The notes under the pieces were generated by a model, which was given only the letters and a program-made list of their open reading frames with translations, did no database searches and had not been told where the DNA came from. From an uncultured Actinomycetota bacterium (lineage in GTDB: Bacteria; Actinomycetota; Actinomycetes; JADGOV01), in NCBI GenBank assembly GCA_963814355.1, contig CAWFCZ010000018.1, positions 637,224 to 701,223 of the forward strand: DNA of 64,000 bases, given 5' to 3'. Positions within the stretch are counted from its first letter, which is position 1, and each line of letters opens with the position of its first letter. The position numbers and the translations under genes are program-made. Below are positions 5,955-38,271 of the stretch, piece after piece.

Positions 5955-6854
5955 CTATCGGGTCTGCAGCCGGTCGAGGGCGAGGTTGACCAGCAGCACG
6001 TTCACCGCGGGCTCACCCATGAAGCCCAGTGTCCTCGATGAGCTGTACTTGTTCACGAAGTCGAGCACCGTCGCCAGCGGAAGGCTGCGGACCCGGGCAA
6101 CGCGCGGGGCCTGCAGTCGGGCGTAGGCGACGGAGATGTCCGGGTCGAGCCCCGACCCGCTCGCGGTGACCGCGTCCGGTGGTACCGGGTTGGCCGGCCA
6201 GGCTCTTCCCGGCCCGCGCAGCGCGACGATGCGGCCGATGCGGTAGTTCTCGCCGAACGTCGCACACTGCACCGGGACACCGTCGAAGATCGCCAGGAAC
6301 AGTGTAGCCGGGCAGGCCTGATTCACGCTCACGACCCGTACCACCGCGCCGGCAATGCCCTGCGCGCGGATCACGGACAGGACCGCTCCTACCCCGTCCG
6401 GTGTGCAATAGGGCCTCAGGCCGTCGACTCTTTCGAGTTGGCCTACCGCGATGCTTCGTGCGCAGACCTGAGTCAGCAGTCCCTGCTTGCCGGTGTCGCC
6501 TTTGACGGACGGGTCGGGCGGCGTGTCAACGATCTCTTCCGGTCCGAGGTTCGAGGCGCTGGTGGCGGTCGGATCGTAGCCGTCACCGGCCGCCGAGGGG
6601 CGGGACTGGAAGTATTTCCGGATCGGGTTGCCCTTGCTGTCGGTGAAGGCCTGGCCGATCACCGCTGACCCGACGCCGCCGTTGGCGTCGATGAGGGACC
6701 CGTCCGCGCGGTGCTGCAGGCCAGGCATCTGCACGGCCGCGGTCACCGCAAGCGGGTAGGCGATGCCGAAGATGACCGTGAGGACGAATAGGGCGCGCAG
6801 TGCGGCGACGTGCCGGCGCAGCCAGGCGGGTAGTCGGATGAGCATCACAGTCAC
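5955..6854 (-). CDS. kdpC: K+-transporting ATPase subunit C (KdpC), apparently intact
   Basis: 299-aa ORF. N-terminal TM helix plus conserved KdpC motifs ([15 protein letters not shown]). Lies between kdpB and kdpD in the canonical order. Confidence 0.7.
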
Positions 6855-8954: not shown

Positions 8955-8999
8955 CCGACGTGGCCGACCCGGGGCATCTGCCGCGAGTCATACGTTGCG

Positions 9000-10680
9000 G
9001 CGGTCATCAGTGCAGCCCCTCTGACCCGGTTCCGCAGGTAGTGGGGTGGGGTGCGGCGTGGTGAGGTGACGAATGCCCTTGCTGGTAAGGAGAATCGTGG
9101 TGCTGAAGCCAGCGGTTCTCTGACCGGGAAGGGCACCCGTCCGGTGAGCAGACTACGACGGAAAGCACGTGGTTCCACCAGGGCCCGGGTTCGGCGCGCC
9201 GGGGTGCGGTTGGGACGGCCGGATCCGTCGCTGACCGGCGTCGCGGGTTTGGCGGGTGTGGATGAGCTGGTCGCCGCGTTGGGGGTGGTGCCGGCGTTGG
9301 ACGCGGGTATCGGGGCGGTCAAGTCCCGGGTCCGGGGCGCGACCGCCGGGCAGTTGGTGACCGGGTTGGCGGCGGCGCGGTGGTGCGGCGCCGAGTGGCT
9401 GTCCGGCTGTGACGGGCTGCGGGCCGACGCGGGCAGCGCGCTGCTGACCGAGGCGGCTGTCCCGGCGTCGACGACGGCCGGGTCGTTGATGCGCCGGTTC
9501 GGCCCGGGGCAGATCGCCGGGATCGAGACCGGGCTCGGTGTGGTCTATGACCGCTGGCTGGCGCTGGTGCCCGGCGCTACCCGTGCTCCGCTGGTCACCC
9601 GGGCGCCGAGGATCGACCTGGACGCCAGCGACGTCGAGGTCTACGGCCGGGCCAAGTGCCGGGTCGGCTACACCTACGCCGGGGTGAAGGCCGGCCGGGT
9701 ACATCTGGCGAGCTGGGCCGGCGCCGAGTTGCCGTTGGCGGCCGATCTGATCGCCGGCAACGAGGATGTCCGCCCGGACGCGCCGGCGCTGCTCCGCCGG
9801 GCGCTGGCCGTGCTGCCGGCGGCGGTGTGCGCCCGGCCGCGGCTGCGCGCGGATGCCGGCTACTTCGACGCCGCCCTCGCCCACGCCGCCCGGGACGCGG
9901 GCGTCGATTTCGCTATCGCCGCGAAGCGGAACCCGGCCGCGTGGCGGGCGTACGCGGGCATCGAGGAGACGGCCTGGCGCGACGCCCGGGACATGACCGG
10001 CGCGCAGGTCGCGTCGTGCGGCTACACCCCGGCCGGCTGGCCGGAAGGCACCTACACCATCGTGCGCCGGGTCCGCGTCGACGCCGAGACGATCAGCGCG
10101 GACCCGCGGTCGAGGCGACGGCGGACCATCGCCGCTGACCAGCTGCGCCTCGCGCTCAACCGGCTGGTCGACCATGCCTGGGCGGTCAGCTTCATCGTCA
10201 CCGACATCCCCGCCGACGACGCCGACCTGGTCGGGCTGGAAACCTGGTTCCGCAACCCGGGTCAGCGTCGAGGAACGCTTCCGGGAAGCCAAACTCGGCG
10301 CCGGGCTGTTCCACCTCCCCTCCGCCGACCACACCGTCAACACGGTCTGGACCTGGGCGGCGCTCCTCGCCGGCGCGCTCAACGTGATGCTCACCGGCCT
10401 GACCGGGGCGCAGCCCTACGTGCGCCACCCCGGCCGGGTGCACATCGACACCCTCCGCCGCCACCTACTCACCACCCCGGCACGGCTGATCCGCCACGCC
10501 CGCGGCCTGACCCTACGACTACCCCCCAACGCAACGCGGTCGAACAAACGAACGAAAAAAAAGACCTGACCCTACGACTACCCCCCAACCGCAACGCGGT
10601 CGAACACGTCCTGACCCGGCTGCGCGCACTCCCCGCCCCGGCCTACTGACCGACGACCCCGCCCCTACCACCGGAGACAC
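9000..10680 (+). mobile_element. IS1380-family insertion sequence occupying the position where kdpA should be. Its transposase carries a 1-bp homopolymer frameshift (about 10262) and a 3' tandem duplication. Element ends are not resolved.
   Basis: Transposase ORF 9051-10649 with N-terminal DPSLTGVAGL..ELVAALG motif and DDE-type core. C-terminal part ERFREAKLGAGLFHLPSADH..NTVWTWAALLA is in the 10174-10569 frame. The element sits between kdpB (start 8954) and kdpF (10883). Confidence 0.6.
10506..10606 (+). repeat. Tandem duplication (about 41-bp unit, 59-bp period, A-rich 18-bp linker) inside the 3' end of the IS1380 transposase gene
   Basis: cctgaccctacgactaccccccaacgcaacgcggtcgaaca occurs twice (10506-10546 and 10565-10606). 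The copies are separated by aacgaacgaaaaaaaaga. Confidence 0.8.
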
Positions 10681-10936: not shown

Positions 10937-11419
10937 AGTTCGCGGAGATCAGCGCGCCGTAGGTGGAGCTGCAACGAGCGCGGTCGCGATCGTTCACCGC
11001 GCAGCCGTACAGCGCCAGCAGTCGCGTGAGATCGCCGCTGCCGTGCCAGCGCGACCGACGACGGGATGCGCGGCCCGTCGCTGTGCTGCTCGTCGACCCA
11101 CCCTCGCACGGCCTCTCCCCAACTCGCCAGACACCACCGTCCTTCAAGCAGTGAAGAAGTTGTCCAGCACCCACCGCAAATTCCCTGACGGACTCCTGAC
11201 GGGTCTCCGCGAAAATCAGGCGAGATCTTGACGGCGGTGTGACGCGGTGGCGGCACGCTCCCCGTACTCACCGGCAGCGATCCGTCTCGTCGTGGCACGC
11301 ACCGCATTCAGCCGGCGGAGCAGTCGGCCGGTGTCGAACGCGGCGACCGGGCCACCGTCGATACCCCTGGGGGTGTATGCTGTCGCGGGGCACCCAGAGA
11401 GCACGCGGAAGGGTGAAGG

Positions 11420-12052
11420 ATGGACGTCGCAACCTGGGACGCGCGGTACACCGGCAGCGACCTGGTCTGGGGAGCAACACCGAACCTCTTCGTCGCCGCC
11501 GAGTTCCAGGGTTACCCGCCCGGTCGGGCGCTGGACATCGCCTGCGGCGAGGGCCGCAACGCGATCTGGCTGGCCACACGCGGCTGGAAGGCCACCGGGA
11601 TCGATTTCTCCCGGGTGGGACTAGACCGCGCAGCCCATCTTGCCGCCGACGCGGGTGTCGCCGACCGGGTCGACTTCGTTGTCGGTGACGTGGTGGCGGG
11701 TCCGCTGCCTCCCGGGCCGTTCGACGCGGTCATCGTCGCCTACCTTCAGTTGCCCGCACCGCAGCGACGGGCAGCGCTGCGCCGCGCGGCGCAGGTCGTC
11801 GCACCGGGTGGGACGCTGCTCGTCGTCGGGCACGACACCACGAACCTCGTCGAGGGTGTCGGTGGGCCGCAGGATCCTGCGGTGCTCTTCACTCCGGAGG
11901 AGGTGCAGGCCGACCTCGCGGACCAGCCCGACCTCATAGCCGACAAGGCCGGGCGGGTGCGCCGGCCTGTGGCGACGCCGGACGGGGAACGGGCTGCGGT
12001 CGACGCGCTCGTGCGGGTCCGGCGGAGAACAGGCGGACGGAGCGGGCGATGA
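11420..12052 (+). CDS. Class I SAM-dependent methyltransferase
   Basis: LDIACGEGRNAIWLA (motif I, glycine-rich) and later motif LLVVGHD. 210 aa. Confidence 0.7.
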   Translation: MDVATWDARYTGSDLVWGATPNLFVAAEFQGYPPGRALDIACGEGRNAIWLATRGWKATGIDFSRVGLDRAAHLAADAGVADRVDFVVGDVVAGPLPPGPFDAVIVAYLQLPAPQRRAALRRAAQVVAPGGTLLVVGHDTTNLVEGVGGPQDPAVLFTPEEVQADLADQPDLIADKAGRVRRPVATPDGERAAVDALVRVRRRTGGRSGR

Positions 12053-12191
12053 CGTGCTGCGCCGCGGGGCTTGCCGCAGGCACGGCGAGGCTGTCCACGG
12101 CGATGCCGACGGGTCGCCGGGCACGGTCACGGTCCCGCTTCGACGACGCGAGCCGCCGGTGCTTCCCCGGTCGCACCGACCGCGTCGGAAC

Positions 12192-12710
12192 ATGCTGGAG
12201 GTAGCTGTGAACGTCTCCGGGCCGATGCCCATCGTTGCCGAGGCCTACCTCGATCGGCTCGTCGACGCCAATGCCCTGCCCTGGATCGAGCACGAGGTGC
12301 CGTTGGTTGGCGGGACGGGCACGCAGGCCGTGAAGCTGCTGCACGCTGATCCGGCGACCGGCGTCTACGCGATGCTCGCTCGTTATCCCAAGGGTCTAGT
12401 CATTCCCCGACATAAGCACCTGGCGCCAGCACATAGCTGGATCCTCCAGGGCGCCTGGCGCTTCGAGGAAAGCCGGCTGACCGCAACGTCTGGGTGCTAC
12501 TCGTATGAGGAGCTGGGCGCGATCCACACGATGCTCATCGAGGAAGACACCGTCGCGTTCCACGTCATCGGTGGGCCGCTGGTCTTCCACGATCCGGATG
12601 GCGGCGTCCGTGAGATGTGGGACTGGGAAAGCACCCAGATCGCGTGGCGGCGGTCGCTTGCCGACGTTGGACTGGCGCCCACTGCCTGGCGGCCCGCACC
12701 CCGCGGCTGA
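12192..12710 (+). CDS. Cupin-domain protein (ChrR-like cupin fold)
   Basis: IPRHKH..HSWILQGAW...EELGAIHT cupin motifs. Start probably ATG 12192 (MLEVAV...). The upstream part of the 12054 ORF is likely non-coding. Confidence 0.55.
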   Translation: MLEVAVNVSGPMPIVAEAYLDRLVDANALPWIEHEVPLVGGTGTQAVKLLHADPATGVYAMLARYPKGLVIPRHKHLAPAHSWILQGAWRFEESRLTATSGCYSYEELGAIHTMLIEEDTVAFHVIGGPLVFHDPDGGVREMWDWESTQIAWRRSLADVGLAPTAWRPAPRG

Positions 12711-13041: not shown

Positions 13042-14949
13042 TCAGTAGCCGACTGTCCGGTAGCTCACCCGAGGCAGCGCGGGGCCGCCAGGTGACAGCG
13101 CAGTCCTGGCTTTTGACTCGTCTGCGAGCTCGGTGAGCAGGAAGGCCGTGACGTAATGCTTGATCACGGCGCGCGCCCGCGTGCGGTCCCACGCGGGGTC
13201 GTCGGAGAAGCCCATCGGAACGAGGGCCGTGATCCGGCGCAGGCGGTCGCAGCGACCCGAGAACACGAAGTGCTCGGCACCGTCGAGGCCGACCTCAACC
13301 TTGCGGATGCTGGATGCCCCTTCATACGCGAGCCGGGTGCTCCAGTCGTACGGCGAGTCGTCGTCGGCGGTGCCTCCAATGACCAGCAGTGGTGCGGTGA
13401 GGGACGCGAGTCCGGGCTCGCCGAACATCGCGGCGTCGCCTGCCAGCGACACCACGGCGTCGACCGGCCTTGGGCCGGCGACGGTCCCACGTGCGTTGGC
13501 GGCGACGACCTGGTCGAACCGCGGCTCCAGGGCGTCGCAGAGGAAGCCGATCGGGTTGTCGTCCTCACGGGCGGTGGCGCAGCCGGCGGTGAAGGCGTCG
13601 GCATCCAGGCGGGCGCCACCGGAGGCGAGCGCGGTGTAGCCGCCGTAGGAATGGCCCACGACGGCCACGGTCCCGGGGTCCACGAGACCGGCGAGGGCCC
13701 CAGCGGAATGGGCCTCGGACTCGACGTACGCCCGGGTCTGCGCGATGTCGTCGACGCGGTCGATCGCCGCGCGCCAGAGGGTCCGCGGGTCGAAGGTCTC
13801 CTCGTGTTGCGGCGCGACCACGACCATCCCGTGGGAGGCGAGGTGCTCGGCCAGCCAGGCGTAGCTGCCGGGCGTGATCGCGAACCCGGACGAGAGCACC
13901 ACCAGCGGGTAGGGGCCTTCGACGACGTCGGGTGCGGCGCCGAGCCGGCCGACCCCCTCGTAGGTGGCCAGTGCGGTCGACACGCTCGGGCCGAGCACGG
14001 TCAGCGCGTAGGAGTAGGTCATCGGGGACTCTGAGGCGGCCGACGCCGTCGCCGGGTACCACACGCTCATCTTGAGTGGGGCGCCTTGTTCGGGTCCGAT
14101 CCGGCGGACGCCGACGGGATGGTCCCCAGGAGCAGCATGACTCAGCCTGGAGTACGTCGACCCGGCCGCGACGAGGTCGGGGGTGGTGAACCCGAACAAG
14201 TAGGCACCAGCCTGCGCCACGAGCCCCGCGAGCACGAGACCGACGAGGCTCGCGACGAGAATGGCCTTGGCGATGGTGCGGCGGACGGCGTTCACGGCGG
14301 GCACCTCCTGACGAAGCGCGGGCTCAGATCCGGGCGTGCTCTGCACGAAATGGCCGACGCCCGCTAGGGCGAGCAGGATTCCGGGCAGCCGGGGCAGGAA
14401 GCCTGAGCGGTGGACGAGCCATCCGGTGAGCACCAGGGACAGCGCGAAGAAGAAGCCCCAGACGAGCACGATGTCGTCGTTCGCCTCCTGGAAGAGCAGC
14501 GCGAGGCCATCGCGTTGGTCGGCCTCGAATGCCGCGAGGTAGCCCGGGTTGGAGACGACCAGCAGGGTGACGACACTGGTGACCAGGCAGCCGGCGGCCA
14601 TCACGACAGCCTCGGCCACCCGTGCCAACGAGGCGGCAAGTGACATCGGCCGGCTGACTGGTCGCAGCAGGGCGTAGAGGACGGCGGCCAGTACGATCTC
14701 GACCAGCACGATCGTGGCCTCACCGGCCATCCCCCAGCGGAACAGGGTTTCCTGGGCACGGATGTTGTCGGCGGTGGCCGCGGCATCGCCGGGAACGACC
14801 AGACTCGACCGGACCAACGTCGACATCGGGTAGACCACGAAGATGGCGAGGTAGAGGCTGCCGGCCAGCTTGGTCAAACGGCGCAGCGGCGGGCGCTCCT
14901 GCGACGTCGGGATGACGGCGGTAGGCGTTGATGTAGTGGTGGCGGTCAT
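13042..14949 (-). CDS. Fusion protein: N-terminal DUF4386-like polytopic membrane domain plus C-terminal alpha/beta hydrolase (dienelactone hydrolase / PAF-acetylhydrolase-like)
   Basis: Several TM helices (LVHRSGFLPRLPGILLALAGVGHF). Nucleophile elbow GHSYGG. Start taken as ATG 14949 (MTATTTS...). Confidence 0.6.
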   Translation of the reverse strand: MTATTTSTPTAVIPTSQERPPLRRLTKLAGSLYLAIFVVYPMSTLVRSSLVVPGDAAATADNIRAQETLFRWGMAGEATIVLVEIVLAAVLYALLRPVSRPMSLAASLARVAEAVVMAAGCLVTSVVTLLVVSNPGYLAAFEADQRDGLALLFQEANDDIVLVWGFFFALSLVLTGWLVHRSGFLPRLPGILLALAGVGHFVQSTPGSEPALRQEVPAVNAVRRTIAKAILVASLVGLVLAGLVAQAGAYLFGFTTPDLVAAGSTYSRLSHAAPGDHPVGVRRIGPEQGAPLKMSVWYPATASAASESPMTYSYALTVLGPSVSTALATYEGVGRLGAAPDVVEGPYPLVVLSSGFAITPGSYAWLAEHLASHGMVVVAPQHEETFDPRTLWRAAIDRVDDIAQTRAYVESEAHSAGALAGLVDPGTVAVVGHSYGGYTALASGGARLDADAFTAGCATAREDDNPIGFLCDALEPRFDQVVAANARGTVAGPRPVDAVVSLAGDAAMFGEPGLASLTAPLLVIGGTADDDSPYDWSTRLAYEGASSIRKVEVGLDGAEHFVFSGRCDRLRRITALVPMGFSDDPAWDRTRARAVIKHYVTAFLLTELADESKARTALSPGGPALPRVSYRTVGY

Positions 14950-15320
14950 GGTTTTTCCTGGGGCTATTGGATGGACAGGTCCTCTCCTCGACTGTCGCGT
15001 TTGTTCATGTGCATTCCTCTCCTCTGAAATGGCTCGTGGATCGCGTGGCCTCCTCACCAACAGCACGCTGGGGGCCCGGGGGATGTACCGGGACCGGTAG
15101 AACACCACCCCGAGTAGCACCAGGTGGATGCCGACGAAGCCGAGAGCGGCGAGGAAGCCAGCGCTGAAGGCTGACCGGGGCATGGATCAGGTAGAGCGTC
15201 ACGGAGAGCGCGACGTCCACGGCCACGATCACGAGCCAGGCGATCAGGCTGAGATTGAACTGGGCGCGGGAGCCGGCGATGTTGTCGGCGGTTGCCGCGG
15301 CGTCAGGCGGGACTGGTAGT
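14950..15320 (-). pseudogene. Short remnant resembling the C-terminal end of another DUF4386-type membrane protein, read in frame upstream of the previous gene
   Basis: FLAALGFVGIHLVLLGVVFYRSRYIPRAPSVLL resembles the ..LVYRSGFVPR..LGVLL.. terminus of DUF4386 proteins. No start or functional context. Confidence 0.3.
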
Positions 15321-15325
15321 CGCAG

Positions 15326-16066
15326 TCATGCGGGATGCCGCGCTCTGGTGTGAGCCAGCGCGGACGGACTGTGACGGCCGACGATCGCCGGGGCTTCCTG
15401 CACCAGCTCGTCGTCGTCGATGGCCTCGACCATGAACAGCGCGAAGTCGACACGCCGGGTCAGGTTGCTGGCCAGTGCGGGGTCGCCGACGTGCCGGCGC
15501 CAGACCGGGAGCCCCTCGCTCTCACCCTCCTCGACGTCGCTGCAGCGCACCACGGTCCACCGACGTTCGCTCGCGAAGACCCGCCGGCAGGCCTCAACCT
15601 GGTCGTCGAGGTCCACCATCCGAGCCAGCCTGGCCAGCCGACCGAAGACCGCGCCGAAGACCCGCAGCTTCCAGGGATACACGTCCTTGCCGTCGCGGGT
15701 GATGTGCCAGCCGCAGGAGAAGATCAGCCGGGCGTCGGCATCGGCGAGATCGAGCACCGCCTGGGCCGTACCGGAGGCGTAGTGCTGCATGCCCCACGGC
15801 GCCAGCACGGTGAGCACCGCGTCGCAGCCGGCCACGGCGCGACCGATGACGTCGCGGTCGTCTGTCCGGCCCGGCACCACGGTGATCCGGTCGCCGAAGT
15901 CGGCGAGCTTCTCCACGCTCTCTTCCCGGCAGACGCCAACGACTCGGTGGCCGCGGTCGAGGCAGTTGCGCACCAGGTAACGGCCCAGCTTTCCGGAGGC
16001 CCCCACGATGCAGACCGTGCGAGGGCTGGTCGATTCGTGCGTCTCCCGGTTCGGGGGCGTCGTCAT
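15326..16066 (-). CDS. NmrA-like / atypical SDR NAD(P)H-binding protein
   Basis: N-terminal Rossmann motif VCIVGASGKLGRYLV. 246 aa. Confidence 0.65.
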   Translation of the reverse strand: MTTPPNRETHESTSPRTVCIVGASGKLGRYLVRNCLDRGHRVVGVCREESVEKLADFGDRITVVPGRTDDRDVIGRAVAGCDAVLTVLAPWGMQHYASGTAQAVLDLADADARLIFSCGWHITRDGKDVYPWKLRVFGAVFGRLARLARMVDLDDQVEACRRVFASERRWTVVRCSDVEEGESEGLPVWRRHVGDPALASNLTRRVDFALFMVEAIDDDELVQEAPAIVGRHSPSALAHTRARHPA

Positions 16067-16386
16067 GTGTCGCTCCCGACCTGTCCGTTGGCGCAGAGCA
16101 GGACGAGACCGGCCCAGATGTACCAGGCGATGACGCCGAGCCCGAAGAGCGTGGCGGGGTGACTATCCAGTTGGAAGGCCAGCGACTCGGCGGGATCCCC
16201 CCGCGTGCCGGTGAAGCCCGCGGGCGCCAGGTGGGCCACCGCCACACCGAAGCCGATCACGTAGGTGACGGTCTCCACAAGCGAGGGCCAGCCACCGGCT
16301 CGCTGCGCGGCCCGCGGGCGGTCCGTCGGCGTCCGGCCCGTGTGCACGGGAGTTGGTGCAGTGACAGTCAGATCGGGAGCGGTCAT
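16063..16386 (-). CDS. Small two-TM membrane protein, translationally coupled to the NmrA-like gene
   Basis: ATGA overlap at 16063-16066. Hydrophobic segments VTYVIGFGVAVAHLA and LFGLGVIAWYIWAGLVLL. Start ATG 16386. Confidence 0.45.
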   Translation of the reverse strand: MTAPDLTVTAPTPVHTGRTPTDRPRAAQRAGGWPSLVETVTYVIGFGVAVAHLAPAGFTGTRGDPAESLAFQLDSHPATLFGLGVIAWYIWAGLVLLCANGQVGSDT

Positions 16387-16649
16387 GGGCCTCCTTCGAT
16401 GAGCGGTGGGGAAAGCCGTGCATGTCCGAGTCTTGATGACGGTGGGTCGGTTGCCCATCGGGGCGCCACCTCAATTTCGTCGCAGCATGCGGTCGCGGGT
16501 GGTGTGTGGATGGGGTGGAGGCTGCATTGCGCGGGGCACATGGCGTGAGCGAGGCTGGATCAGTGAGCGCTTTCTTAACGCGCCCAGCGCTGGGCGCGAA
16601 AACCCATCGTCCGAACTGGGTGCGCCCAGCATCGTGGGGGCCATCGCTG

Positions 16650-17616
16650 TACATGCGCGTGGTTCTCGTCAACAGCTCCGTCCTGCTGCTGGCCGTCCTC
16701 GCCTTGGTCGTCACGCCGGTGACGGTGTCGTTCCCGATCGCGACCGAGCAGGGCCTGGTGCTGACGGTCGGGGCGGTGGTCATCGCCACCGCGAATGCGG
16801 TGCTGCTGCGTCTCAACTTCCGTGGACTCCGGGCAGTGGTTCGCCGCATGGAGACGATCGACGTGCTGAGACCCGAGGAGCTCCTGCCGGAGACCGGCGG
16901 CCCCGAGGCGAAATCGCTCATCGTCGGCTTCAACACGATGCTGGACCGTCTCGAGACCGAACGCCGGACGAGCGCCCGGCGGACGCTCAACGCCATCGAG
17001 AGCGACGCCGACGGATCGGTCGCGAGCCGCACGACGAGATCGGCCAGCGCCTGACCGGAACGCTGCTGGAACTGCAACGCCTGGCAGATGACCTACCTGA
17101 GCCGTTCAAGTCCGAGGTCGGGTCCATCCGGGAACAGCAACGTGCGACGCTGGACGAAGTCGGTGCCCTCGCGTGCAGATGCGCCCAGCCCTCCTGGACG
17201 ACCTCGGGCTGCTCAGCGCGGTCGACGCTCTGGCCGAATCGCTGGACGAACAATCCGTCCGGATCGAGACGTCGCTCCCTCGTGGCCTGAGCGCGCTTCC
17301 TCCGGATCTGGAGCTGGTCGTCTACCGCATCGCGCAGGAGGCGCTGACCAATGCGGTACGCCCCGCGGGGGCGTCCCGCATCGAGCTCGAACTTGAGGTG
17401 CGCGCCGGCCGGCTGACATTGCGGGTGACTGATGACGGCACCGGCTTGTCCGCCGCGACGTCGGAAGGACCTGGGATCCGGGGGATGCGCGAGCGAGCTC
17501 TCCTCGTCGGGGGTCGCCTGCACATTGGCCCGGCCGCAGCCGCGCGGCGACCCGGGCATCGAGGCACCACCGTCCGGCTCGACATTGCGGACCTCACCCC
17601 GGTCGCCCCCCGATGA
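16650..17616 (+). pseudogene. NarL-partner sensor histidine kinase (HisKA_3 + HATPase_c) with frameshifts near 17000 and 17170
   Basis: TM N-terminus (16506-17054 ORF). H-box region EPHDEIGQRLTG in the 16406-17290 frame. ATPase part ELVVYRIAQEALTNAVRPAGAS..DDGTG..GIRGMRERA in the 17173-17616 ORF. Confidence 0.65.
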
Positions 17617-18328
17617 CCGATTCCGGCGTGGCGCGGGTGCTGATCGCCGATGACCATGCCGTCGTCCGGGCGGGTCTCAGGGCGCTGATCGATCGGGAAC
17701 CGGATCTCGAGGTCGTGGCCGAAGCCGCTGACGGACGCCAAGCCCTGCAGATGGGCATGAGTGAGGATCTCGATCTCGCCATCCTCGACATTGCCATGCC
17801 GGGCCTGACCGGCTTGCAGGCCACCCGCGAGATCCGCCGCAGACGCGAGCTGCCGATCCTCATCCTCTCGATGTACGACCGTGAGCAGTACTTCTTTGAG
17901 GCGGTCGCGGCGGGCGCCGCAGGGTACGTGCTCAAGCGCCAGGGCGACCAGGACATCGTCGAAGCTTGCCGAGCCGCTATCGGCGGCGAGCCCTTCGTCT
18001 ATCCCAACGCCCTCAGCGCCCTCATGCGCCGGTACCTCGCCCTGGTCGACCACGGCCAGGACCCAGGTGCCGGACCTCTCACAGCCCGGGAGACCGAGGT
18101 CGTCAAGCTCATCGCGGAGGGGCACAGCTCCCAGGAGATCGCCGACTCTTGTGCATCAGCCTCAAGACGGTGGACCGGCACCGGACCAACCTGCTCGAGA
18201 AGCTCAACATGAACGACCGGGTCCAGGTCACCCGCTACGCCATCCGAGCCGGCTTGGTCGAACCATGCGTGCGCCGGCACGGCCTTGCTCGCGGTTCGTC
18301 GTCCAAACAGCGATCGATTCAATCTTGA
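17613..18328 (+). pseudogene. NarL/LuxR-family response regulator with a frameshift near 18140
   Basis: Receiver domain VLIADDHAVVRAGL..DLAILDIAMPG. LuxR HTH (TVDRHRTNLLEKLNMNDRVQVTRYAIRAGLV) is in the 17966-18328 frame. ATGA overlap with the kinase. Confidence 0.7.
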
Positions 18329-18542
18329 ACGTACCGACCGCACCCCACGAGCCCGACTGAGCAGCGTTTCCCCAGGTGAGCCGTGGAAGGTAGGCCTCCT
18401 CCTGACTGTCTCCGCACTCAGGCACTGGCTTCGACTGCCGATGTCGACGGCCATATCCAGTCGATGCCTGGGCCGCCGTTCGCCGAGGATTCCCGTGGAC
18501 GCTCGCAATCTCTGAGAGCGTGCACCGTCCTGGCCAACCTGG

Positions 18543-19898
18543 TCAGCCTGCGCCGGCAACCGGCCCCGCATCGGCGATCTTGGCGTTTAGGTCCTGTAGG
18601 GCCGCGAGGTAGATCTCGGAGAAGGTGGGGAAAGGCTGGATCGTGTCCAGCAGAACGCTGAGGCTGATCTCGGCGCGGATCGCGAGCGTGGCCTGCTGGA
18701 GCCATTCGCCTGCCTCCGGTCCGATTGCATAGGCGCCAGTCAGGCGAGCCCCATCGCTGAGCAGGGTGAGGAACCCGTCGGACTCGGCGTAATCGTGCAT
18801 GTACGTCGCCGTCTTCGCGACATCGGCGAGTCTGGCTGAGCCGGCGAAGGGCGCCGCCGTCGCACCCACGGCGGCGGCAGCCGGGTCTGTGAACACCACC
18901 CGTGGGACTGAGTCGTAGTTGGCCGTGACGGGATCGCCCAGGATGTTCGCGGCGACGACCCGGCCCTGGTACTTCCCGACGTGGGTCAGCGGCCAGATAC
19001 CGGTCACGTCGCCGATGGCCCACAGCCGGTCGCCCGCGCGAAGGTGTCCGTCTACCGGTATCCCTTGCTGAGTGGGCATGACCCCCACCGTCTCCAGCCC
19101 GATCCCCTCGGTCCGAGGACGTCGTCCGGTAGCGACGAGCAGGCGGTCGCCGCGGAGCTCGCGGCCGTCGTCCAGAACCAGCACGTAGTCGCCCCGCTCG
19201 CGGCGAGCACCAGTCGACTGGACGGCGAGGACGACGTCGATCCCGTCGCCCCGGAGCACGTCACTCAACGCCTCGCCAAGCTTTTGCGGCTCACGCGCCA
19301 GAAGGCGGTCGGCGCCCTCGACAAGGGTGACCTCGCCACCGAGCCGCTGGACCGCCTGGGCCATCTCGACGCCGACCGGGCCGCCCCCGAGCACCAACAG
19401 TCGCCCCGGTACCTCGGTCATGGCAGTTGCCTCGCGGTTTGTCCACAGGCCGTCGAGCTCGCGAAGCCCAGGGATCGGTGGGATGGCGGGATCCGACCCG
19501 GTTGCGAGCACCACGTGGCGCGCCCTGTAGCCGACACCGTCGACGTCGACGGCACCGGGCCCAGCCAGGCGGCCTCGGCCCCGGATCAGGTCGATGCCAT
19601 GGTCACGAAGCCACGTCTCCTGGCCGGAGTCGGAGTGACCGGACACCATGAAGTCCCGCCAGGCGAGAGCGGCGGGCACGTCGACCTCAGCGGTCGCTGC
19701 CGCCTGCCGCGCGGCGTGGACCGCCTCGCCGGGCCGCAGCAACGACTTGGACGGGATGCAGGCCCAGTACGAGCACTCCCCACCCACGAGCTCGCGCTCG
19801 ACCACTGCCACCCGCAGGCCACCGGCAGCCAGCGCGCCGGCGCAGTGCTCGCCCGGTGAACCTGCGCCGACGATGATCACGTCGTAGTCGGCGTTCAT
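18543..19898 (-). CDS. Class I pyridine-nucleotide-disulfide oxidoreductase (Lpd / mycothione-reductase / MerA-like flavoprotein without NmerA)
   Basis: [15 protein letters not shown] motif. Redox-active [13 protein letters not shown] disulfide. Second Rossmann motif [13 protein letters not shown]-terminal dimerisation-domain His/Pro region. Confidence 0.75.
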
Positions 19899-20207
19899 GC
19901 TGGCACGACCCGGCCGGACGTGGCCGTAGTCTTCGCGTTGCGCTTCCGGACACTCGTCATGACGGCCCTCCTCACATAGATTGAGTTCTGAACGATCCCG
20001 ACCTGCTACGGGACCGCTGCGTTTCGCGCCCGAGTATGCCCCTGGTTCGGGTCGACGAACTGGCCTCACCAGGGTCTTCCCCTGGCGCGAGCGGGCGGTC
20101 CCACCGCAAGGTGGAACTGCACCACCAGCTTGGGGGCCGATCGCACCCAGAGGAAGAGAGCACGCCGCGGGAGGTCGCTGGCGTGCGCACGAGAAGGGAT
20201 GTCAGCA

Positions 20208-20848
20208 TGGAGTACCTCGTGACGATGACCACCCGCGTTCCGGACGGCACCTCGGAGGCATCGGTTCGGGACATCCGGATCCGCGAGGCCGCTCGATCGG
20301 GCGAACTCGCTGCGCAGGGGCACCTGCTGCGTCTGTGGCGTCCGCCGGTGCGGCCGGGCGAATGGCGCACTCTCGGCCTGTTCGCAGCTGACGACGACGC
20401 CGCGCTCGACAAGGACCTCGCCTCGATGCCGCTGAGAGTGTGGCGGACCGATGAGGTGACGCCGCTGACGCCCCACCCGAATGACCCGCCAGCTCGACGT
20501 CGCCTGCCGGGGTCACCGGCACCGGAGGGCGGGGGCACCGAGTTCCTGACCACGTGGGTCCTCGACATCCCGGCGAGCACCCCCACCGACACTGTCGACG
20601 CCACGACCGTGCACGAGGCCGAGCGCGCACACCACCTGGCCGAGCGGGGCTACCTCCTGCGGCTGTGGCGGCTCCCGGGTGAGGGTCGAGCACTGGGTCT
20701 GTGGCGAGCCCGGGACTCCGCCGAGCTGCAAGCCCTGCTCGCGTCGCTGCCGATGAATGCGTGGCTACGGGTGCAGACGACACCACTCGCCCCGCACCCC
20801 AGCGACCCGCCGACCACGAGTCGCCCGACCAGGGAGGTCGGTTCGTGA
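20208..20848 (+). CDS. Protein with two tandem muconolactone Delta-isomerase-like (dimeric alpha+beta barrel) domains
   Basis: Two repeats of the pattern GHLLRLWR..G..LGLF.A.D...L...L.S.P......EVTPL.PHP. Confidence 0.55.
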
Positions 20849-21558
20849 CCTATCGGGACCAGAAGGTGGTCGTTGTCACTGGAGGTTCGCGGGGCATCGG
20901 AGCAGGCCTCGTGTCGGCCTACCGTCGGCGAGGCTGGGCGGTCGTGGCCACTTCCCGCACCATCAAGCCTGCTGGGGATCCGGCGGTGCTCACCGTCGAG
21001 GGAGACATCGCTGATCCCGTGACCGCCGACAGAGTCGTCACGGCGGCACTGGAAGGTTTCGGACGCATCGACACCCTCGTCAACAACGCCGGCGTCTTCA
21101 TCGCAAAGCCCTTTGCCGACTACAGCGACGAGGACTACGCGCTTGCCATGGGTGTCAACCTCACCGGATTCTTCTGGCTGACGCAACGCGTCATCGCCGA
21201 GATGCTCGAGCGACACAAGGGCCACATCGTCAACATCACCGCCACGCTCACCGACTACGCCAGCTCCGCCACACCCGCTGTCCTGACCTCACTGACCAAA
21301 GGCGGTCTCGCCTCAGCCACCAGATCGCTGGCCATCGAGTACGCCACCCGCGGCATCCGGGTCAACGCTGTGTCGCCGGGCGTCATCCAGACGCCGGAGC
21401 ACCCGCCGGAGACCTACGCTGGGCTCGCGGCACTTCACCCACTCGGCCGAGTCGGCCAAGTCAGCGACGTGGTCGACGGCATCCTCTACCTCGAGTCAGC
21501 CCCGTTCGTCACCGGAGAGATCCTGCACATCGACGGGGGCCAGATCGCGGGCCGCTGA
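20845..21558 (+). CDS. SDR-family oxidoreductase
   Basis: TGGSRGIG cofactor motif, NNAG, catalytic Y..xK region. GTGA overlap with the upstream gene. Confidence 0.75.
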   Translation: MTYRDQKVVVVTGGSRGIGAGLVSAYRRRGWAVVATSRTIKPAGDPAVLTVEGDIADPVTADRVVTAALEGFGRIDTLVNNAGVFIAKPFADYSDEDYALAMGVNLTGFFWLTQRVIAEMLERHKGHIVNITATLTDYASSATPAVLTSLTKGGLASATRSLAIEYATRGIRVNAVSPGVIQTPEHPPETYAGLAALHPLGRVGQVSDVVDGILYLESAPFVTGEILHIDGGQIAGR

Positions 21559-21614
21559 CCTGACCATCCGCCGTGCGACCGGCACTGTGCCGTCGACCGC
21601 CCTCAGGGGTCGGG

Positions 21615-23345
21615 TCACAAGTCCAGCACGAGCTCGGTGGTCGGCTTCGCCGAGCAGATCAGGAGCTCGTCGTCGCCGGGAGGTTCGAGCGGTGGCGTCT
21701 CGTACGACGCAGCGCCGGACAGCACAGCGGTGACACAGGTGTGGCAAACGCCGGTACGACACGACCACTGCGTCGGTAGGTCGCAAGCCTCGGCCAGCTC
21801 GAGCACCGAGGCGTAGGCGTTCGACCAGGTCGTGGTGAGTCCCGACCGGGCGAAGGTGACCCCGGGACCGGTGCCGGGCGGCCCGGATGGCTGATGCGGC
21901 GTCACCCCGTCGGCGCCGACCATACCGGGGTTGATCGGCGAACGCGAGCCGAATCGTTCGGTATGGATGTGGGTCCGGTCGATGCCGACCTCCGCGAGCG
22001 CGGCCGAGATGTCGTCCATGAACCGCTCGGGCCCACAGACATACACACTCGCGTCAGCGGGGAGGCCGAGACCCGCGATCACCTCCCGGTCGAGCCGTCC
22101 CTCCCTCAGGCCGGACTCGGGGGCGAGCGGCCCTCCCGGATTGGTGTAGTAGACCAGCGCGCGAGCCGACGGCAGTCGCCCGAGAAGGCCACCGACCTCG
22201 GCGGCGAAGGCATGGCTGCCCGCATCATGCGTGGTGTGGATCCACCACAAATGTCGCCGGCTGTGCTCACTCGCGAGCCGGTGGAGCATCGCCAGCAGCG
22301 GCGTCTGACCGATGCCCGCGGAGATGAGCAGCACGGGTTCGGGGCCCTGTTCCAGGACGAAGTTACCGCGCGGCGCTGCGACCTCGAGCCGGTCTCCGCG
22401 CTGCAGGTGCGTGGCGAGATGCGAGCTGACCAGCCCGTGCGCCTCACGCTTCACGCTGATCCGGTAGCGGCCGCCGTCCGGGTCACCCGACAGCGAGTAG
22501 GTCCGGACCGGGGTCGGCTCGCCTGCGCCGGGCACGCGGAGGGTGAGGAACTGGCCGGGCCGGTACGCCGGGAGCGCGCCGTCCCCGTCGAGCCGGAACG
22601 ACGTCACGGACGCGCTCTCGGGAACGACGTCGGTGACCGTGAGCGTCCGAAATCCGGCCCAGGCCGGCGGTGTTGCCGCTGGTACGCCGGCCGGGGCCTC
22701 CGCTCCGTGCTCCAGCATGCTCCGGAACGACTCGCGCCACCCCGGGCTCAACGCCGCGATGTCCAAGGCCGCCTTCAGCCGCTCCACGTCGTGCCCCGGC
22801 AGGTACAGCAGCGCGTCGACGTCGGCCACGCTCACCGCGCGGGGGACTCGTCGGGTGCGCACGATCTCGTCGCCCGCGGCGACGTGTCCCTCAGTCAGGA
22901 CGCGCAGGTAGAAGCCCGGACGATGGTGGGAGACCAACAGCGCGGGGAGCTGCGGTTCTCCCATCCGCATCCCCACCCGGAAGCAGGTGACGCGGGGCTG
23001 GGTGACCTCGAATTCCGCCTCGCCGATGCGGTAGCGGTCACCGATGCAGACCTCGTCGTCGTCGAGCCCTTCGACGGTGAGGTTCTCCCCGAACGCGCCG
23101 TGCTCGAGGTCGTCGCGGCCGAGGAACTCCTGCCAGTGCCGATAGGACCCGACCTGGTAAACGAGCAGGGCTCGCTGCTCGCCGCCGTGCCCGGCCAGGT
23201 CGCCTTGCCCGTCACCCTCGATGTTCAGGCGGCGGACCATGCGTGGCCCAGACACCGGCCGCTTCCAGATACCCGTGTGCACGGTGCGGCCTCGCCACGG
23301 CACGTCCTTCGGCATCCCGACGTTGACCGAGAGCACGGTTGCCAT
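21615..23345 (-). CDS. Three-domain fusion: MOSC domain, FAD/NAD(P)-binding ferredoxin-reductase-like domain and C-terminal 2Fe-2S ferredoxin
   Basis: N-terminus MATVLSVNVGMPKDVPWRGRTVHTGIWKRPV (MOSC). RTYSLS flavin-binding motif. C-terminal CRTGVCHTC..C cluster ligands. Confidence 0.7.
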   Translation of the reverse strand: MATVLSVNVGMPKDVPWRGRTVHTGIWKRPVSGPRMVRRLNIEGDGQGDLAGHGGEQRALLVYQVGSYRHWQEFLGRDDLEHGAFGENLTVEGLDDDEVCIGDRYRIGEAEFEVTQPRVTCFRVGMRMGEPQLPALLVSHHRPGFYLRVLTEGHVAAGDEIVRTRRVPRAVSVADVDALLYLPGHDVERLKAALDIAALSPGWRESFRSMLEHGAEAPAGVPAATPPAWAGFRTLTVTDVVPESASVTSFRLDGDGALPAYRPGQFLTLRVPGAGEPTPVRTYSLSGDPDGGRYRISVKREAHGLVSSHLATHLQRGDRLEVAAPRGNFVLEQGPEPVLLISAGIGQTPLLAMLHRLASEHSRRHLWWIHTTHDAGSHAFAAEVGGLLGRLPSARALVYYTNPGGPLAPESGLREGRLDREVIAGLGLPADASVYVCGPERFMDDISAALAEVGIDRTHIHTERFGSRSPINPGMVGADGVTPHQPSGPPGTGPGVTFARSGLTTTWSNAYASVLELAEACDLPTQWSCRTGVCHTCVTAVLSGAASYETPPLEPPGDDELLICSAKPTTELVLDL

Positions 23346-23567
23346 CGCCTCGCACCCCTTCCTGGGTGGTTGCGGCCATCATGCTCTCGACCCCGAGCAT
23401 CCCGACACGGGTCGGCAGCGCACCGGGGACGTGCGTTGTGGGTATCTGGCCTCCGGGACCGGACCAGTGAGTCTCCCTGGTGCGAGGCGGCGCTGTGGTG
23501 AGACGGCATACCCGAAGAGCGTTTGCACAGTTCAGCGCCATGTTTCAGTCACTACTACGACGTCTAG

Positions 23568-24988
23568 CTAGGGCCCGGCCGAGGCTGCCGAGCACCTGTA
23601 CGTACCTGGCATCGTGCGCGTCCAGGCCACTGTCGGGCAGGGCGGTCGAGAGCAGGTCGGCCGCCCGGGTTCCGTGGACGCCGGGGCGCCAGGTGGCGTC
23701 CTCGAACCCCATCGCCGCGACCAGTCGCAGGTCGGACGGCCGAGGAGCGCCAGCTGTTCGTAGATCTCCCGGGCACGGGGAAAGTTGCAGGACCGCACGT
23801 AGTCGGAGGCAGCCGCCAGCAGGAGGCTCGAGTGCTCCAGCTCTTCGCAGCCGGGCAGCGCAGCCGCGCGCTCGAACCAGCCGGCCGCCTCCTCGAACGC
23901 CAGGCTCTCCTCGGCCAGGCGACCCGCGTCACGGCTGTGCGCCAGTGCCCGGTCGTGGAAGCCGAGCGCGCTCGCAGCAAGGAAATGGTGAGCCAGGCGC
24001 GGGATCAGCGCGGTCGGCCGAGGCAGCCGTTCCAGGGCCTGGCCCGCGCACGCGTGGAGGTGGGCGAGCCGCGACGGCGGGGTGCGGTCGATTACGGCCT
24101 GCCGGGTCAACGAGTGGACGAAGGCGAAGCGGGCTCCGTGCTGATCGACCGGCTCGATCAGGCCCGGGGCGACGGCGGCGTCGACGAACTCCAGCGTGCG
24201 CCGACGGTCGGTCCCGCCGGCTGCGATGAGAGCCGCCAGCTCGAACTCGTCCCCAGGACCGCTGCCTGCTCCAGGATGTTCCGGACCGCCTCCCCCATGC
24301 CGGCGATCCGCCCTTCGACAGTGTCGCTGATCGAGGCCGGCACCCGGTGCCAAGACCGCAGGTCAGACACCGCACCACGGCGTTCCAGGTCCGCCCACAT
24401 CTCCCGGAGGAAGAACGGGTTGCCGCCGGTGCGGTCGCGCAGGAGCGCGGCGGCTGCGCGAGCCTGGTCCGGGGCGAGTCCGGTTCGCAAGGCCACGAAC
24501 TGCGCGATGGCGTCGGTGTCCAAGCCGTCCAGGTCGAGCCGTCGGACTCCCTCGAGCCGGTGCATGTCGGCCATCCAGAGGGAAAGCTCGTCGGACCGGT
24601 CGGGCCGGGTGGTGCGGAACGTCGCGATCAGCAGGATGCGGGCCTCGGTCGACGCGCTCGCCAGGTGCTGGAGCATGCCGAGCGAGGGGAGCTGCGCCCG
24701 CTGTAGATCCTCGAGCACCAGGACGAGCGGGCGGGTTTCCGCCAAGCGGGCGAACAGAACGCTCACGGCCTTGAACAGGTCACGCCGCTGGTCCGCGGCC
24801 CCAGGAGGTCCCTCGACGCTGCGCCGGTGCCGGTCGACCTTGACGGACAGCCGTCGCAGCAGCGCGCTCTCATCGTCGAGCACCTGGCTCAGGCTGCCGG
24901 GTGGGCTGTCCTGCATCAGCTGGTCGAGCAGGTCGGCGAACGGCTGGTAGGGGACGCCAGCCGGACGGGCAACGGCGGCAGGGGCCAC
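23568..24988 (-). pseudogene. Second LAL-type regulator fragment (24158-24988 and 23568-24353 in different frames) lacking the Walker A N-terminus and the LuxR HTH
   Basis: LVLVLEDLQ (Walker-B-like), GNPFFLRE motif and a TPR-like continuation. No P-loop and no HTH. Confidence 0.5.
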
Positions 24989-25031
24989 GACGTCACGTCG
25001 CGGTCATCCCCTGGCTGAAGTCGGCGCCCTG

Positions 25032-26243: not shown

Positions 26244-27310
26244 CTACCAGCCGGTCACCGAGCTGGCGTCCTTCTCCAACTGGGTCTGCGCTTGGGCGAC
26301 GTTCCCGTTGCGCAGGAAGGTCTGCAGGACGGCCCATTCGCCCTTGTTGGGCGTCCCGCCGAAGTCGGCCGGCGCCTAGTCGGACATGTCGAAGCGGAAG
26401 TTGTCGCCGACGGAGACGATCTGCTGGCCCAGTTGGGCGGAGGTCGGGTCGGCGTACGCCGAGGAGGGACGTTCTTGTTGGCCGACAGGACCCCGCTGCC
26501 GGAGGCTCCGACCAGCACCTGAGCGGCCTTGGTGGAGGCGAGGAACTCCAGGAACGGCTGGACCGCAGGGTTCGAGGTGAAGCCCACGGCGAAGTCGCCG
26601 GCGGCCTCCAAGCCGGGGCGGATCCGCCGATCGAGGGGAATGCGAAGAACTTCGCCATCGCCCCGACGTGAGCCGGGTCCTTGTCACCGGTGATAGTCGT
26701 CGCGACGAACGAGGCCTCGTAGAACCATCGCGGAGTAGGGGCTGGCCTTGAACACGTTGTCGACGGAGCCGGTGAAGCCGACCTTCAGCGCATTGGTCGG
26801 GCTGCCGATGATCGCCTTGTCGCCCCAGATCTGCTTCAGCGTGGTCAGCGCGGTAGTGACGGATGGATCCGTCCACTTGATCTGATGGTGGGTCAGCTGG
26901 TCGTACTTGCTCAGTCCTGCCGTGCGCAGGTAGACGTTCTCGAACCAGTCGGTCAGGGTTCAGCCGTCTCCTCCGCCGACGGCGATCGGGACCGTGACGC
27001 CGGAGTTGCGCAGCGTCTGAGCGTCGGAGCTGAACTGGGTCCAGGTCTTGGGTAGCGACGTGATCCCAGCGGCCAGGAAGAGCTTGTCGTTGTACCAGAC
27101 CGTGGACTTGTCGGACGCATCCACCGGGACGCCGTAGAGCTTGCCGTTCACCGTCGCGAGCTTGGCCCACTCGGGCGAGAAGTTGGCCTTGACCTCCTGC
27201 TGGGCTGCCGGGTCGACCGGTTGCAGCTTGCCCGCGTTGCCGTACTGCGAGATCCTGCCTGGCTTGATGCTGTTGGTGGTCCTCCTCCTAGCCTCCTGCA
27301 GCCACTCCGG
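26244..27310 (-). pseudogene. ABC transporter sugar-binding protein, split over at least 3 frames
   Basis: Pieces at 26960-27541, 26376-27170 and 26255-26611. Conserved SBP C-terminus ..VLQTFLRNGNVAQAQTQLEKDASSVTGW ends at about 26244. Confidence 0.55.
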
Positions 27311-28025
27311 GCCTTCTCCCGCCCCGAGCACCGGCACTGCGAGCGGGGATTCGACCGCGGCAACCAGCTGCAGGAGCAGTACCTCGCGACCATCAAGGAC
27401 GTCCGCCCGTCGGTCGTCCTGATCCAAAGCAGCAAGGACCTGGGCTCGGGCGTCGTCCTCGAGCCAGGGCGACATCGTCACCAACGACCACGTCGTCGGC
27501 ACGGCAACGTCCATCCCGGTGACGCTCTCCGGGAGCTCCACCAGTCACCCCGCAACGCTCGTCGGCACCTATCCCCCGGACGACCTCGCCGTCATCCGGG
27601 TAAGCGGCGCCGGCACGCTGCGCCCGGCCCACTTCGCCAACTCCTCCAAGCTCGAGGTCCGGCGACATCGTCCTGGGCAGCGGCAACCCTCTGGGCCTGG
27701 CCAGCAGCGTGACCAACGGGATCATCTCCGCGCTCGGCCGGACCGTCAGCGAGGCGACGAGCGCGGACTCGCCCGGCGCCACCCTCCCCGACACCATCCA
27801 GACCAGCGCCGCAATCACCCTCGGCGGCGTCTGGTCGACCTCTCCGGCCAAGTCATGAGGATCCCGACGCTCGCGGCGACCGATCAGCGGCTCGGTGGGG
27901 GGCCGCGCCAAGCATCGGGTTTCGCTATCTCCAGCAACGTCGTCAAGGACATCGCCGCCCAGCTCGTGGCGGACGGCAAGGTCACCCGGTCGCACCGCGC
28001 CGCGCTGGGCATCCGACCTACCTGA
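27290..28025 (+). pseudogene. HtrA/DegP-like S1C serine protease, frameshifted at least twice
   Basis: SVVLIQSS..LGSGVVLE and ..DIVTNDHVV in one frame. GNPLGL..GIISALGR.. in a second frame. C-terminus ..VKDIAAQLVADGKVTRS. Confidence 0.5.
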
Positions 28026-38222: not shown

Positions 38223-38271
38223 GTCGCGCTTCTACCATCGACGACCAAAGTCACTCGCACCAGGAGGACAC

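Follow-up and report, generated by a model that had tools for sequence, protein, structure and literature searches.

Two enzyme families form the background to this account. The first is the MOSC proteins: all those assayed so far reduce N-oxygenated compounds, and a 2023 review that records an architecture joining YiiM to flavin and 2Fe-2S modules (example UniProt Q89NR8) counts it among the poorly studied MOSC proteins, with no assay reported (PMC10637980). The second is the muconolactone isomerases (MIases). These are homodecamers built on an alpha+beta barrel, a fold that arises either by dimerisation or by duplication and fusion (PMC4835899); Glu27 is the residue mutated in the crystal structure of E27A ClcF, a 5-chloromuconolactone dehalogenase of the same fold, with its substrate (PDB 3zo7). 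Both families meet in a cluster of four genes at 18543-23345 in a stretch of 64,000 nt (about 69% GC) from an uncultured Actinomycetota bacterium, contig CAWFCZ010000018.1. We call the whole of this stretch the window, and all coordinates are window positions. We are confident that these four genes are truly conserved as a unit. What the window shows is one local combination, drawn from a pool of genes that recur and are reshuffled in soil Actinomycetota.

Domains were called by Pfam profile search, and family-level assignment was made by NCBIfam equivalog cut-offs. The cluster, which we also refer to as the module, has the following parts.

18543-19898, minus strand: class I pyridine-nucleotide disulfide oxidoreductase (PNDR), 451 aa; Pyr_redox_2 (4.5e-56), Pyr_redox_dim (3.4e-12)
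19899-20206, no strand: divergent intergenic region between PNDR and MIase2, 308 bp; from the sequence and a repeat search
20207-20848, plus strand: MIase2, a tandem muconolactone-isomerase-like protein, 213 aa; PF02426 (6.7e-55) in two stretches
20845-21558, plus strand: non-canonical short-chain dehydrogenase/reductase (SDR) of classical type, 237 aa; adh_short_C2 (1.2e-44)
21615-23345, minus strand: MOSC-FNR-2Fe2S fusion, 576 aa; MOSC PF03473 (1.1e-34), YiiM_3-alpha PF03475 (2.4e-14)
21615-23345, minus strand: remaining domains of the same fusion; FAD_binding_6 (9.4e-10), NAD_binding_1 (4.6e-10), Fer2 (1.7e-07)

These four intact genes make three transcription units. The PNDR gene is divergent from the MIase2-SDR operon across the 308-bp spacer, and the MOSC fusion gene converges on the SDR gene with a gap of 56 bp. 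A preliminary description of this DNA had spoken of five intact redox or isomerase genes; intact they are, and of those kinds, but the interval holds four. Its domain assignments were sound throughout. The disulfide reductase with its CxxxxC centre is there (Pyr_redox_2, Pyr_redox_dim and the motif CSYWAC), Pfam returns every component of the MOSC-FNR-2Fe2S fusion, and the profile searches it proposed as a check confirmed all the domains it had named. MIase2 does consist of two MIase domains, with its start at 20207, not 20208. The GTGA overlap reported at 20845 is real: the stop of MIase2 and the start of SDR share 4 nt (20845-20848), a GGGAGG Shine-Dalgarno-like sequence precedes them, and gene callers give the same 4-nt overlap on related contigs. 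MIase2 and SDR are translationally coupled. There are no frameshifts in the 4.8 kb of module coding sequence, and an independent Logan assembly is 100% identical over 19764-22825, in the module region.

It is recurrence elsewhere that makes this cluster a unit. We made one comparison seeded with MIase2, drawn from the best 80 of at least 451 genome loci (75 of them informative for the SDR and PNDR counts), and one metagenome scan seeded with the MOSC fusion, which covered 80 mostly short contigs, many of 2-6 kb. An SDR ortholog of about 70% identity occurs at 33 of the 75 informative MIase2 loci, in 30 of which it lies directly downstream on the same strand. PNDR orthologs, also about 70% identical, are found at 21 of the 75, usually immediately upstream on the same strand, and the MOSC-FNR-2Fe2S fusion (51-57% identity) at 7 of the 80. 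All four genes come together in two classes: in two Acidimicrobiales metagenome-assembled genomes (MAGs; L007 and L009), where they form a single PNDR-MIase2-SDR-MOSC string, and in two Actinomycetes MAGs (L040 and L053). The preliminary description had suggested a neighbourhood comparison across actinobacteria, and reductase, MIase2, SDR and MOSC fusion do co-occur repeatedly in other Actinomycetota. Closest to the window is a sister lineage (L082-L087 and L090; MIase2 89% identical) with the same divergent and convergent layout. Its DNA is 89.1% identical over 18675-23502. The homology ends, and the flanks become different, 157 bp upstream of the MOSC start.

Further partners emerged when all open reading frames (ORFs) around MIase2 were clustered and the commonest among the top 30 clusters were annotated by Pfam. 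A regulator of about 950 aa with AAA_16 and LuxR domains (LAL) stands beside MIase2 at 24 of the 80 loci, a small VOC/glyoxalase-like protein lies nearby at 25, an AhpC/TSA-like redoxin with a single conserved Cys (CPK.H) at 22, and DUF4331 at 21. At 14-17 loci an alpha/beta hydrolase sits just upstream; its best NCBIfam match is PcaD, at 89.7 bits below the cut-off of 255.85. Nitronate-monooxygenase-like and GH15 proteins recur as well. The MOSC-seeded contigs return the same families: VOC on about 17 of the 80, LAL on 9, the AhpC-like redoxin on 8, PNDR on 7, SDR on 4 and MIase2 on 2. Because two seeds bring back the same families in varying order and orientation, we regard these genes as a functionally linked pool that reshuffles, not as frozen synteny. 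The pool comprises a PNDR lacking the catalytic His, the small VOC protein, the single-Cys redoxin, MIase2, an SDR lacking the catalytic Tyr and the MOSC fusion, with the nitronate-monooxygenase-like protein, the PcaD-like hydrolase and DUF4331 as occasional members, and it usually adjoins a large AAA_16-LuxR (LAL) regulator. Our literature search found no paper describing an association of these enzyme subfamilies.

Two other observations concern the partners. There is a second MIase2 context, made up of LAL, PcaD-like alpha/beta hydrolase, DUF4331 and MIase2 without PNDR, at loci including L014, L025, L027, L028, L051, L055 and L078 (L055 carries SDR); the partner genes there sit just upstream of MIase2, which lies at about 10001. 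We know of no function for DUF4331. The AhpC/TSA-like partner is a 200-aa protein (L008, 6327-6929; L072, 4887-5489; and 18 similar) whose sequence keeps about 80% identity between distant MAGs. No NCBIfam model recognises it, its one conserved Cys lies in RG..CPK.HQQ, and it lacks the Thr/Ser of the peroxiredoxin motif PxxxTxxC.

The 308-bp spacer contains a 23-nt imperfect inverted repeat (20024-20046 and 20068-20090; 78% complementary, 21-nt spacer, core CCCTGG...CCAGGG). We considered it as a conserved operator and rejected the idea: outside the window it is kept by the sister lineage alone, and there the DNA is about 90% identical throughout, with the spacer itself at 91%, the same value as for the flanking coding DNA. 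Nor is the repeat systematically present upstream of MIase2 at other loci. An Rfam search of the leader to E = 1 gave no match to a riboswitch or other RNA, and a scan of the spacer for sigma-70 promoter and terminator consensus sequences, which is uninformative in an actinobacterium of 69% GC, gave nothing.

What kind of enzymes are these? Since duplication and fusion, as well as dimerisation, can give rise to alpha+beta barrels (PMC4835899), the best reading of MIase2 is a fused pseudo-dimer based on the MIase barrel. Its AlphaFold model (pLDDT 85.7) has two ferredoxin-like beta-alpha-beta-beta-alpha-beta domains joined by a disordered linker at residues 97-108, and the top fold matches in the PDB are the ClcF/MIase subunits 3zo7 and 4fpi, with TM(target) of 0.83-0.89. 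The equivalent of Glu27 is kept in both halves, as E27 (aligned to ClcF E27) and E137, each invariant across 20 homologs, and each half also retains LWR and PL..HP. The N-terminal half is the better conserved, with a mean column identity of 91% against 80% and 55 invariant positions against 25. Canonical CatC, the muconolactone Delta-isomerase of EC 5.3.3.4, is ruled out by the tandem 213-aa chain and by the equivalog TIGR03221, against which MIase2 scores 83.2 bits where the cut-off is 130.6. Neither the module nor the annotated recurrent neighbour clusters offer a catA/catB/pcaD beta-ketoadipate context. The preliminary description thought the tandem architecture unusual. It is not rare: a protein search with MIase2 gave 5,674 matches, of which the best 120 are all 200-251 aa long, 65-89% identical and named by NCBI 'muconolactone Delta-isomerase family protein', and relatives are encoded in at least 451 species-representative genomes. 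This is a large family that NCBI has already named, and in the literature we found no characterised tandem MIase.

The SDR encoded behind MIase2 keeps TGGSRGIG (the TGxxxGIG motif), NNAG and the catalytic Lys, with the equivalents of N86 and N110 conserved. An alignment of 32 orthologs with E. coli FabG puts Val at the position of Tyr151 in 29 of them and Ala or Thr at that of Ser138 in 30; the catalytic Lys is present in 31. In these aligned sequences the loss of the catalytic Tyr and Ser is family-wide. The closest solved structure, PDB 3UN1, a 'probable oxidoreductase', aligns end to end at 317 bits. We know of no established function for 3UN1, so none can be transferred to the SDR, and no paper characterising the Tyr-less subfamily was found in the literature.

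PNDR has FAD/NAD Rossmann domains, a dimerisation domain and the CSYWAC (CxxxxC) redox disulfide. Among solved structures it comes nearest to lipoamide dehydrogenases and the MerA core. Across a family set of 21 sequences (20 loci plus the window) the active-site loop GGECSY[WYF]AC[IV]PSK is present in all 21, Phe replaces the catalytic His in 20, and QPFPTFSE is found in 19. The Glu of the His-Glu dyad (HPT.SE) is retained, so that the aligned motif reads QPFPTFSE in PNDR, HPHPTLSE in lipoamide dehydrogenase and FPYLTMVE in MerA. PNDR lacks both an NmerA domain and a C-terminal Cys pair, and the best NCBIfam match, MerA, reaches 295.9 bits against a cut-off of 454. Mercury-resistance MerA is excluded on these grounds, and lipoamide dehydrogenase by motif and cut-off. 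With the motif changed, the Cys pair and NmerA absent and no cut-off reached, PNDR is not MerA and probably not a conventional disulfide reductase. Our search of the literature turned up no characterisation of a Phe-for-His subfamily.

The MOSC fusion carries the MOSC Cys in TQPRVTCF, RTYS and GIGQTP in its FNR module, and a plant-type 2Fe-2S signature, CxxxxCxxC...C. It scores 104.5 bits against NF008577, the equivalog for the N-hydroxylaminopurine reductase YiiM, short of the cut-off of 294. These motifs predict a self-contained electron chain from NAD(P)H to the molybdenum cofactor (Moco).

Taken together, the sequences lead us to favour, with moderate confidence, the reading that the cluster is an NAD(P)H-driven set of enzymes for the reductive detoxification of small molecules that are oxidised or electrophilic. 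The preliminary description had suggested a redox or detoxification role, and that is still the most reasonable reading of the proteins. In such a set the MOSC fusion would pass electrons from NAD(P)H through FAD and 2Fe-2S to Moco and reduce an N-oxygenated compound by two electrons, as YiiM, YcbX and mARC do. MIase2, with its conserved Glu as proton shuttle, would act on an unsaturated lactone or enone by shifting a double bond or by tautomerisation, and its product could be handled by the NAD(P)H-binding SDR made from the same mRNA. PNDR would work through FAD and its Cys-Cys centre, and what it reduces would be a small oxidant, a metal or a quinone; like MerA it has no acid-base His, which makes a bulky disulfide an unlikely substrate. 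Elsewhere the set may be governed by the LAL-type regulator. We would go further only speculatively, and with much more doubt than belief: the LAL-linked pool might be an undescribed stress regulon of soil Actinomycetota directed against one class of natural toxin (N-hydroxylated or N-oxide compounds, or butenolide-type antibiotics), in which MIase2 and SDR would carry out an isomerase and hydride-transfer reaction not known from either parent family.

Several findings weigh against a detoxification set. None of the four enzymes reaches any NCBIfam equivalog cut-off, and none was assigned a substrate. The SDR may be no reductase at all, because the residues normally needed for carbonyl reduction are missing. 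The genes are associated only in part: SDR and PNDR are both absent from about half of the MIase2 loci, and most MOSC-fusion loci show no partner, though many of those contigs are only 2-6 kb long. In Rhodococcus MIase2 belongs to a different operon, composed of TetR, epimerase/NmrA-like, MIase2, Zn-dependent alcohol dehydrogenase (ADH), MFS, glyoxalase-like and TPMT-like methyltransferase genes. The PcaD-like hydrolase beside MIase2 at 14-17 loci suits catabolism as well as it does detoxification. Lastly, no cognate LAL regulator of the module was found in the window, where the LAL proteins of related loci match only GerE domains elsewhere. A decayed cognate LAL at 23568-25003 was considered and rejected: the AAA_16 remnant there (24158-25003) gives weak matches of 27-37% at unrelated locus positions.

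The Rhodococcus operon, different as it is, is thematically similar to the module. Its TPMT-like methyltransferase (L002, 14000-14701) has a possible thematic counterpart in the window, where a TPMT/TehB-like methyltransferase is followed by a ChrR-cupin protein at 11417-12710 on the plus strand.

Among the rivals, the one that survives best is a catabolic branch in which MIase2 and a lactone hydrolase process a muconolactone-like intermediate derived from an aromatic compound or a lactone used as carbon source, while SDR, PNDR and MOSC supply accessory redox steps. The catalytic Glu kept in both halves of MIase2 agrees with it, as does the hydrolase resembling PcaD, the 3-oxoadipate enol-lactonase, just upstream of MIase2 at those 14-17 other loci. 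Yet the PcaD score is typical of generic alpha/beta hydrolases, the window module has no such hydrolase beside it, and MIase2 itself stays under the CatC cut-off. The Pfam-annotated recurrent neighbours include no ring-cleavage dioxygenase, cycloisomerase, CoA-transferase or thiolase, and the VOC partners are small single-module proteins, not extradiol dioxygenases of about 300 aa. We consider this branch unlikely.

Less likely again is that MIase2 and SDR modify or inactivate butenolide or gamma-butyrolactone signals or antibiotics under LAL control, PNDR and MOSC being unrelated neighbours. MIase chemistry does act on butenolide rings, LAL regulators and lactonase-like alpha/beta hydrolases are frequent companions, and the Rhodococcus gene lies in a TetR/MFS operon of the kind typical of small-molecule resistance. 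The argument is drawn wholly from fold chemistry, though; no AfsA-type or other biosynthetic genes appear among the annotated neighbours, and PNDR, VOC and redoxin are also, independently of MIase2, recurrent partners of the MOSC fusion, which points to a broader redox theme.

To the proposal that the four genes are functionally unrelated, their synteny reflecting shared descent or co-transfer on a genomic island, we give a similarly low probability. All four meet at only 4 of the 80 distant loci, order and orientation vary, and components about 70% identical across classes could reflect a recent horizontal transfer of the block. Against this, two independent seeds return the same partners in differing orders and orientations, as expected if proximity is selected, and the 4-nt MIase2/SDR overlap is found in 30 loci of two classes.

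The last rival, adopted in the preliminary description, makes the module the regulon of the adjacent NarL-type two-component system, left unregulated by its inactivation; adjacency in the window and the breakage of both kinase and regulator speak for it, but intact orthologous pairs always sit beside NmrA or ADH, DUF4386 and PETase-like genes, only 1 of the 80 MIase2 loci has any kinase/regulator pair within 7 kb (a distant paralog, 35-38% identical), the regulator and PNDR genes are convergent, and we regard it as highly improbable.

That two-component system belongs to a different unit, with NmrA, DUF4386 and hydrolase genes, and we are very confident that the redox module is not its regulon. 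The features in question lie to the left of the module.

16563-17616, plus strand: HisKA_3/HATPase_c histidine kinase pseudogene with two frameshifts; Pfam, tblastn
17613-18328, plus strand: NarL/FixJ-type response regulator pseudogene with one -1 frameshift; Pfam, tblastn
13042-16386, minus strand: partly decayed partner genes of the two-component system; gene order in relatives, tblastn, Pfam

Orthologs of the pair are what place it. In Nocardioides sp. GXQ0305 (L088) the genes divergent to kinase and regulator encode an unknown protein of 246 aa, one resembling NmrA, a pair of DUF4386 proteins and a hydrolase of PETase/chlorophyllase-like type; gene order was also compared with that of L089, and two contigs besides the Nocardioides one carry DUF4386, ADH and the same PETase-like hydrolase. 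PNDR and MIase genes are absent from the surroundings of all the intact orthologous pairs (79-89% identity). Since the neighbours of the orthologs are the left-hand genes and never the module genes, the system belongs on the left, and in the window those same partner genes do lie left of the kinase, on the side opposite the module. Only the NmrA-like gene (15326-16066) has come through undamaged. The gene for the 246-aa protein is a remnant of its first 83 codons (16117-16386), one DUF4386 gene is fragmented, and the other is fused in frame to the PETase/chlorophyllase-like hydrolase in a 713-aa ORF (13042-15183). The left-hand unit, 13042-18328, appears to be decaying as a whole.

The kinase and regulator had been described as frameshifted. 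So they are, and more badly than stated, with two shifts and one, respectively. In a tblastn comparison, matches to the intact 351-aa Nocardioides sp. GXQ0305 kinase are spread over three reading frames of the window (16563-17006, 17024-17173 and 17176-17607), which places frameshifts near 17006-17024 and at 17173-17176 and the true start at 16563, not at 16406 as first proposed. The match to the regulator is split between two frames (17613-18158 and 18143-18265), and its reading frame runs to 18328; the -1 shift, near 18143-18158, falls within the GerE helix-turn-helix. One-base repair restores a product of 218 aa, to which intact 218-aa homologs from Nocardioides, Kribbella and Nocardioidaceae MAGs are 84-89% identical; this hints, short of proof, at an origin of the window in a relative of that family. 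The public record carries a truncated regulator of 199 aa (P0163). The frameshifts are probably genuine, because three of them cluster in 1.7 kb while the module coding sequence has none, because truncations and deletions accompany them in the neighbouring genes, and because the truncated product stands in the public record. Uniform sequencing error is an unlikely cause of shifts that are clustered and come with deletions, when ORFs of 1031 and 1420 aa are intact elsewhere in the window. An independent assembly across kinase and regulator was not found; exact-product look-ups of the truncated regulator, PNDR and the NmrA gene returned no record.

Other regulators in the window have fared no better. 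Remnants of large AAA_16/TPR/LuxR (LAL-type) regulators lie at 262-2485 (minus strand), 23568-25003 (minus) and 35442-36967 (plus). In the first, a truncated MalT-like TPR region (model positions 4-119 of 336) and the C-terminal half of a DUF4386 domain share one ORF, at 262-1809; the second retains only AAA_16 model positions 63-167; the third has TPR and GerE without the N-terminal ATPase domain. The window looks like a graveyard of regulator genes. At 26684-27544 (minus) an SBP_bac_1 fragment (model positions 57-156 of 307) stops at 26960-26962, after which the frame is open (26684-26959); this is possibly a nonsense-mutated pseudogene, though the piece downstream of the stop has no Pfam match. 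About 8 kb from the module, a 535-aa ORF for a DDE-family transposase (9042-10649, plus) lies beside kdpB/kdpC-like genes (5955-9003), and such a transposase, together with so many pseudogenes, marks the region as plastic. Further to the right, one ORF (37056-38222, plus) combines a complete alpha/beta-hydrolase domain with a C-terminal GerE/LuxR DNA-binding domain, and an OsmC-like gene (38074-38751) comes after it. The window has a single tRNA gene, for tRNA-Met (CAT) at 39883-39959 (minus), and it does not adjoin the module.

What does this amount to? At present it is a hypothesis-generating observation on a gene neighbourhood, and not one to surprise a specialist: every domain family is known, and the tandem MIase, like the architecture of the MOSC fusion, is on record already. 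One mis-assignment of a regulator by mere adjacency is corrected. Should the functional link be true, the cluster would be a starting point for four large, unstudied enzyme subfamilies common in soil Actinomycetota: the disulfide reductase without acid-base His, the SDR without catalytic Tyr, the fused MIase, and the MOSC fusion, which, needing no external electron partners, would make a usefully simple model for mARC and YiiM chemistry.

How, then, do the gene set and its members compare with systems already described? For the set as a whole there is a parallel in the quinone and electrophile stress regulons of Bacillus, of MhqR/YodB type, in which VOC/glyoxalase-like proteins, NAD(P)H reductases and alpha/beta hydrolases are deployed against electrophiles. 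The likeness is one of analogy only; there is no sequence relationship, the Bacillus regulators are of MarR type where ours are LAL-type, and those regulons are not known to include MIase or MOSC proteins. Each half of MIase2 has the fold of CatC and ClcF (PF02426; 4fpi, 3znj, 3zo7) at about 30% identity. CatC and ClcF, however, are subunits of about 94 aa in a homodecamer, whereas MIase2 puts two domains in one 213-aa chain, and unlike them it has no catechol or chlorocatechol pathway around it and is paired with a Tyr-less SDR. That SDR resembles 3UN1, a structural-genomics SDR with the same catalytic-residue substitutions, including that of the YxxxK Tyr, and the same ...LTKGGL motif. PNDR shares FAD/NAD domains, dimerisation domain and CxxxxC with MerA/RclA-type reductases and lipoamide dehydrogenase; it differs in having Phe at the catalytic His site, where lipoamide dehydrogenase has His and MerA Tyr, and in its unusual loop GGECSYWAC. 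The MOSC fusion, finally, has the Moco-type MOSC domain and conserved Cys of E. coli YiiM and YcbX and eukaryotic mARC, and the MOSC plus 3-alpha domains of YiiM. Those enzymes depend on NAD(P)H, a flavin and an iron-sulfur or haem carrier for their electron supply, and the fusion would need the same. Unlike them, it has an FNR-like FAD/NAD module and a 2Fe-2S domain fused to its YiiM-type MOSC.

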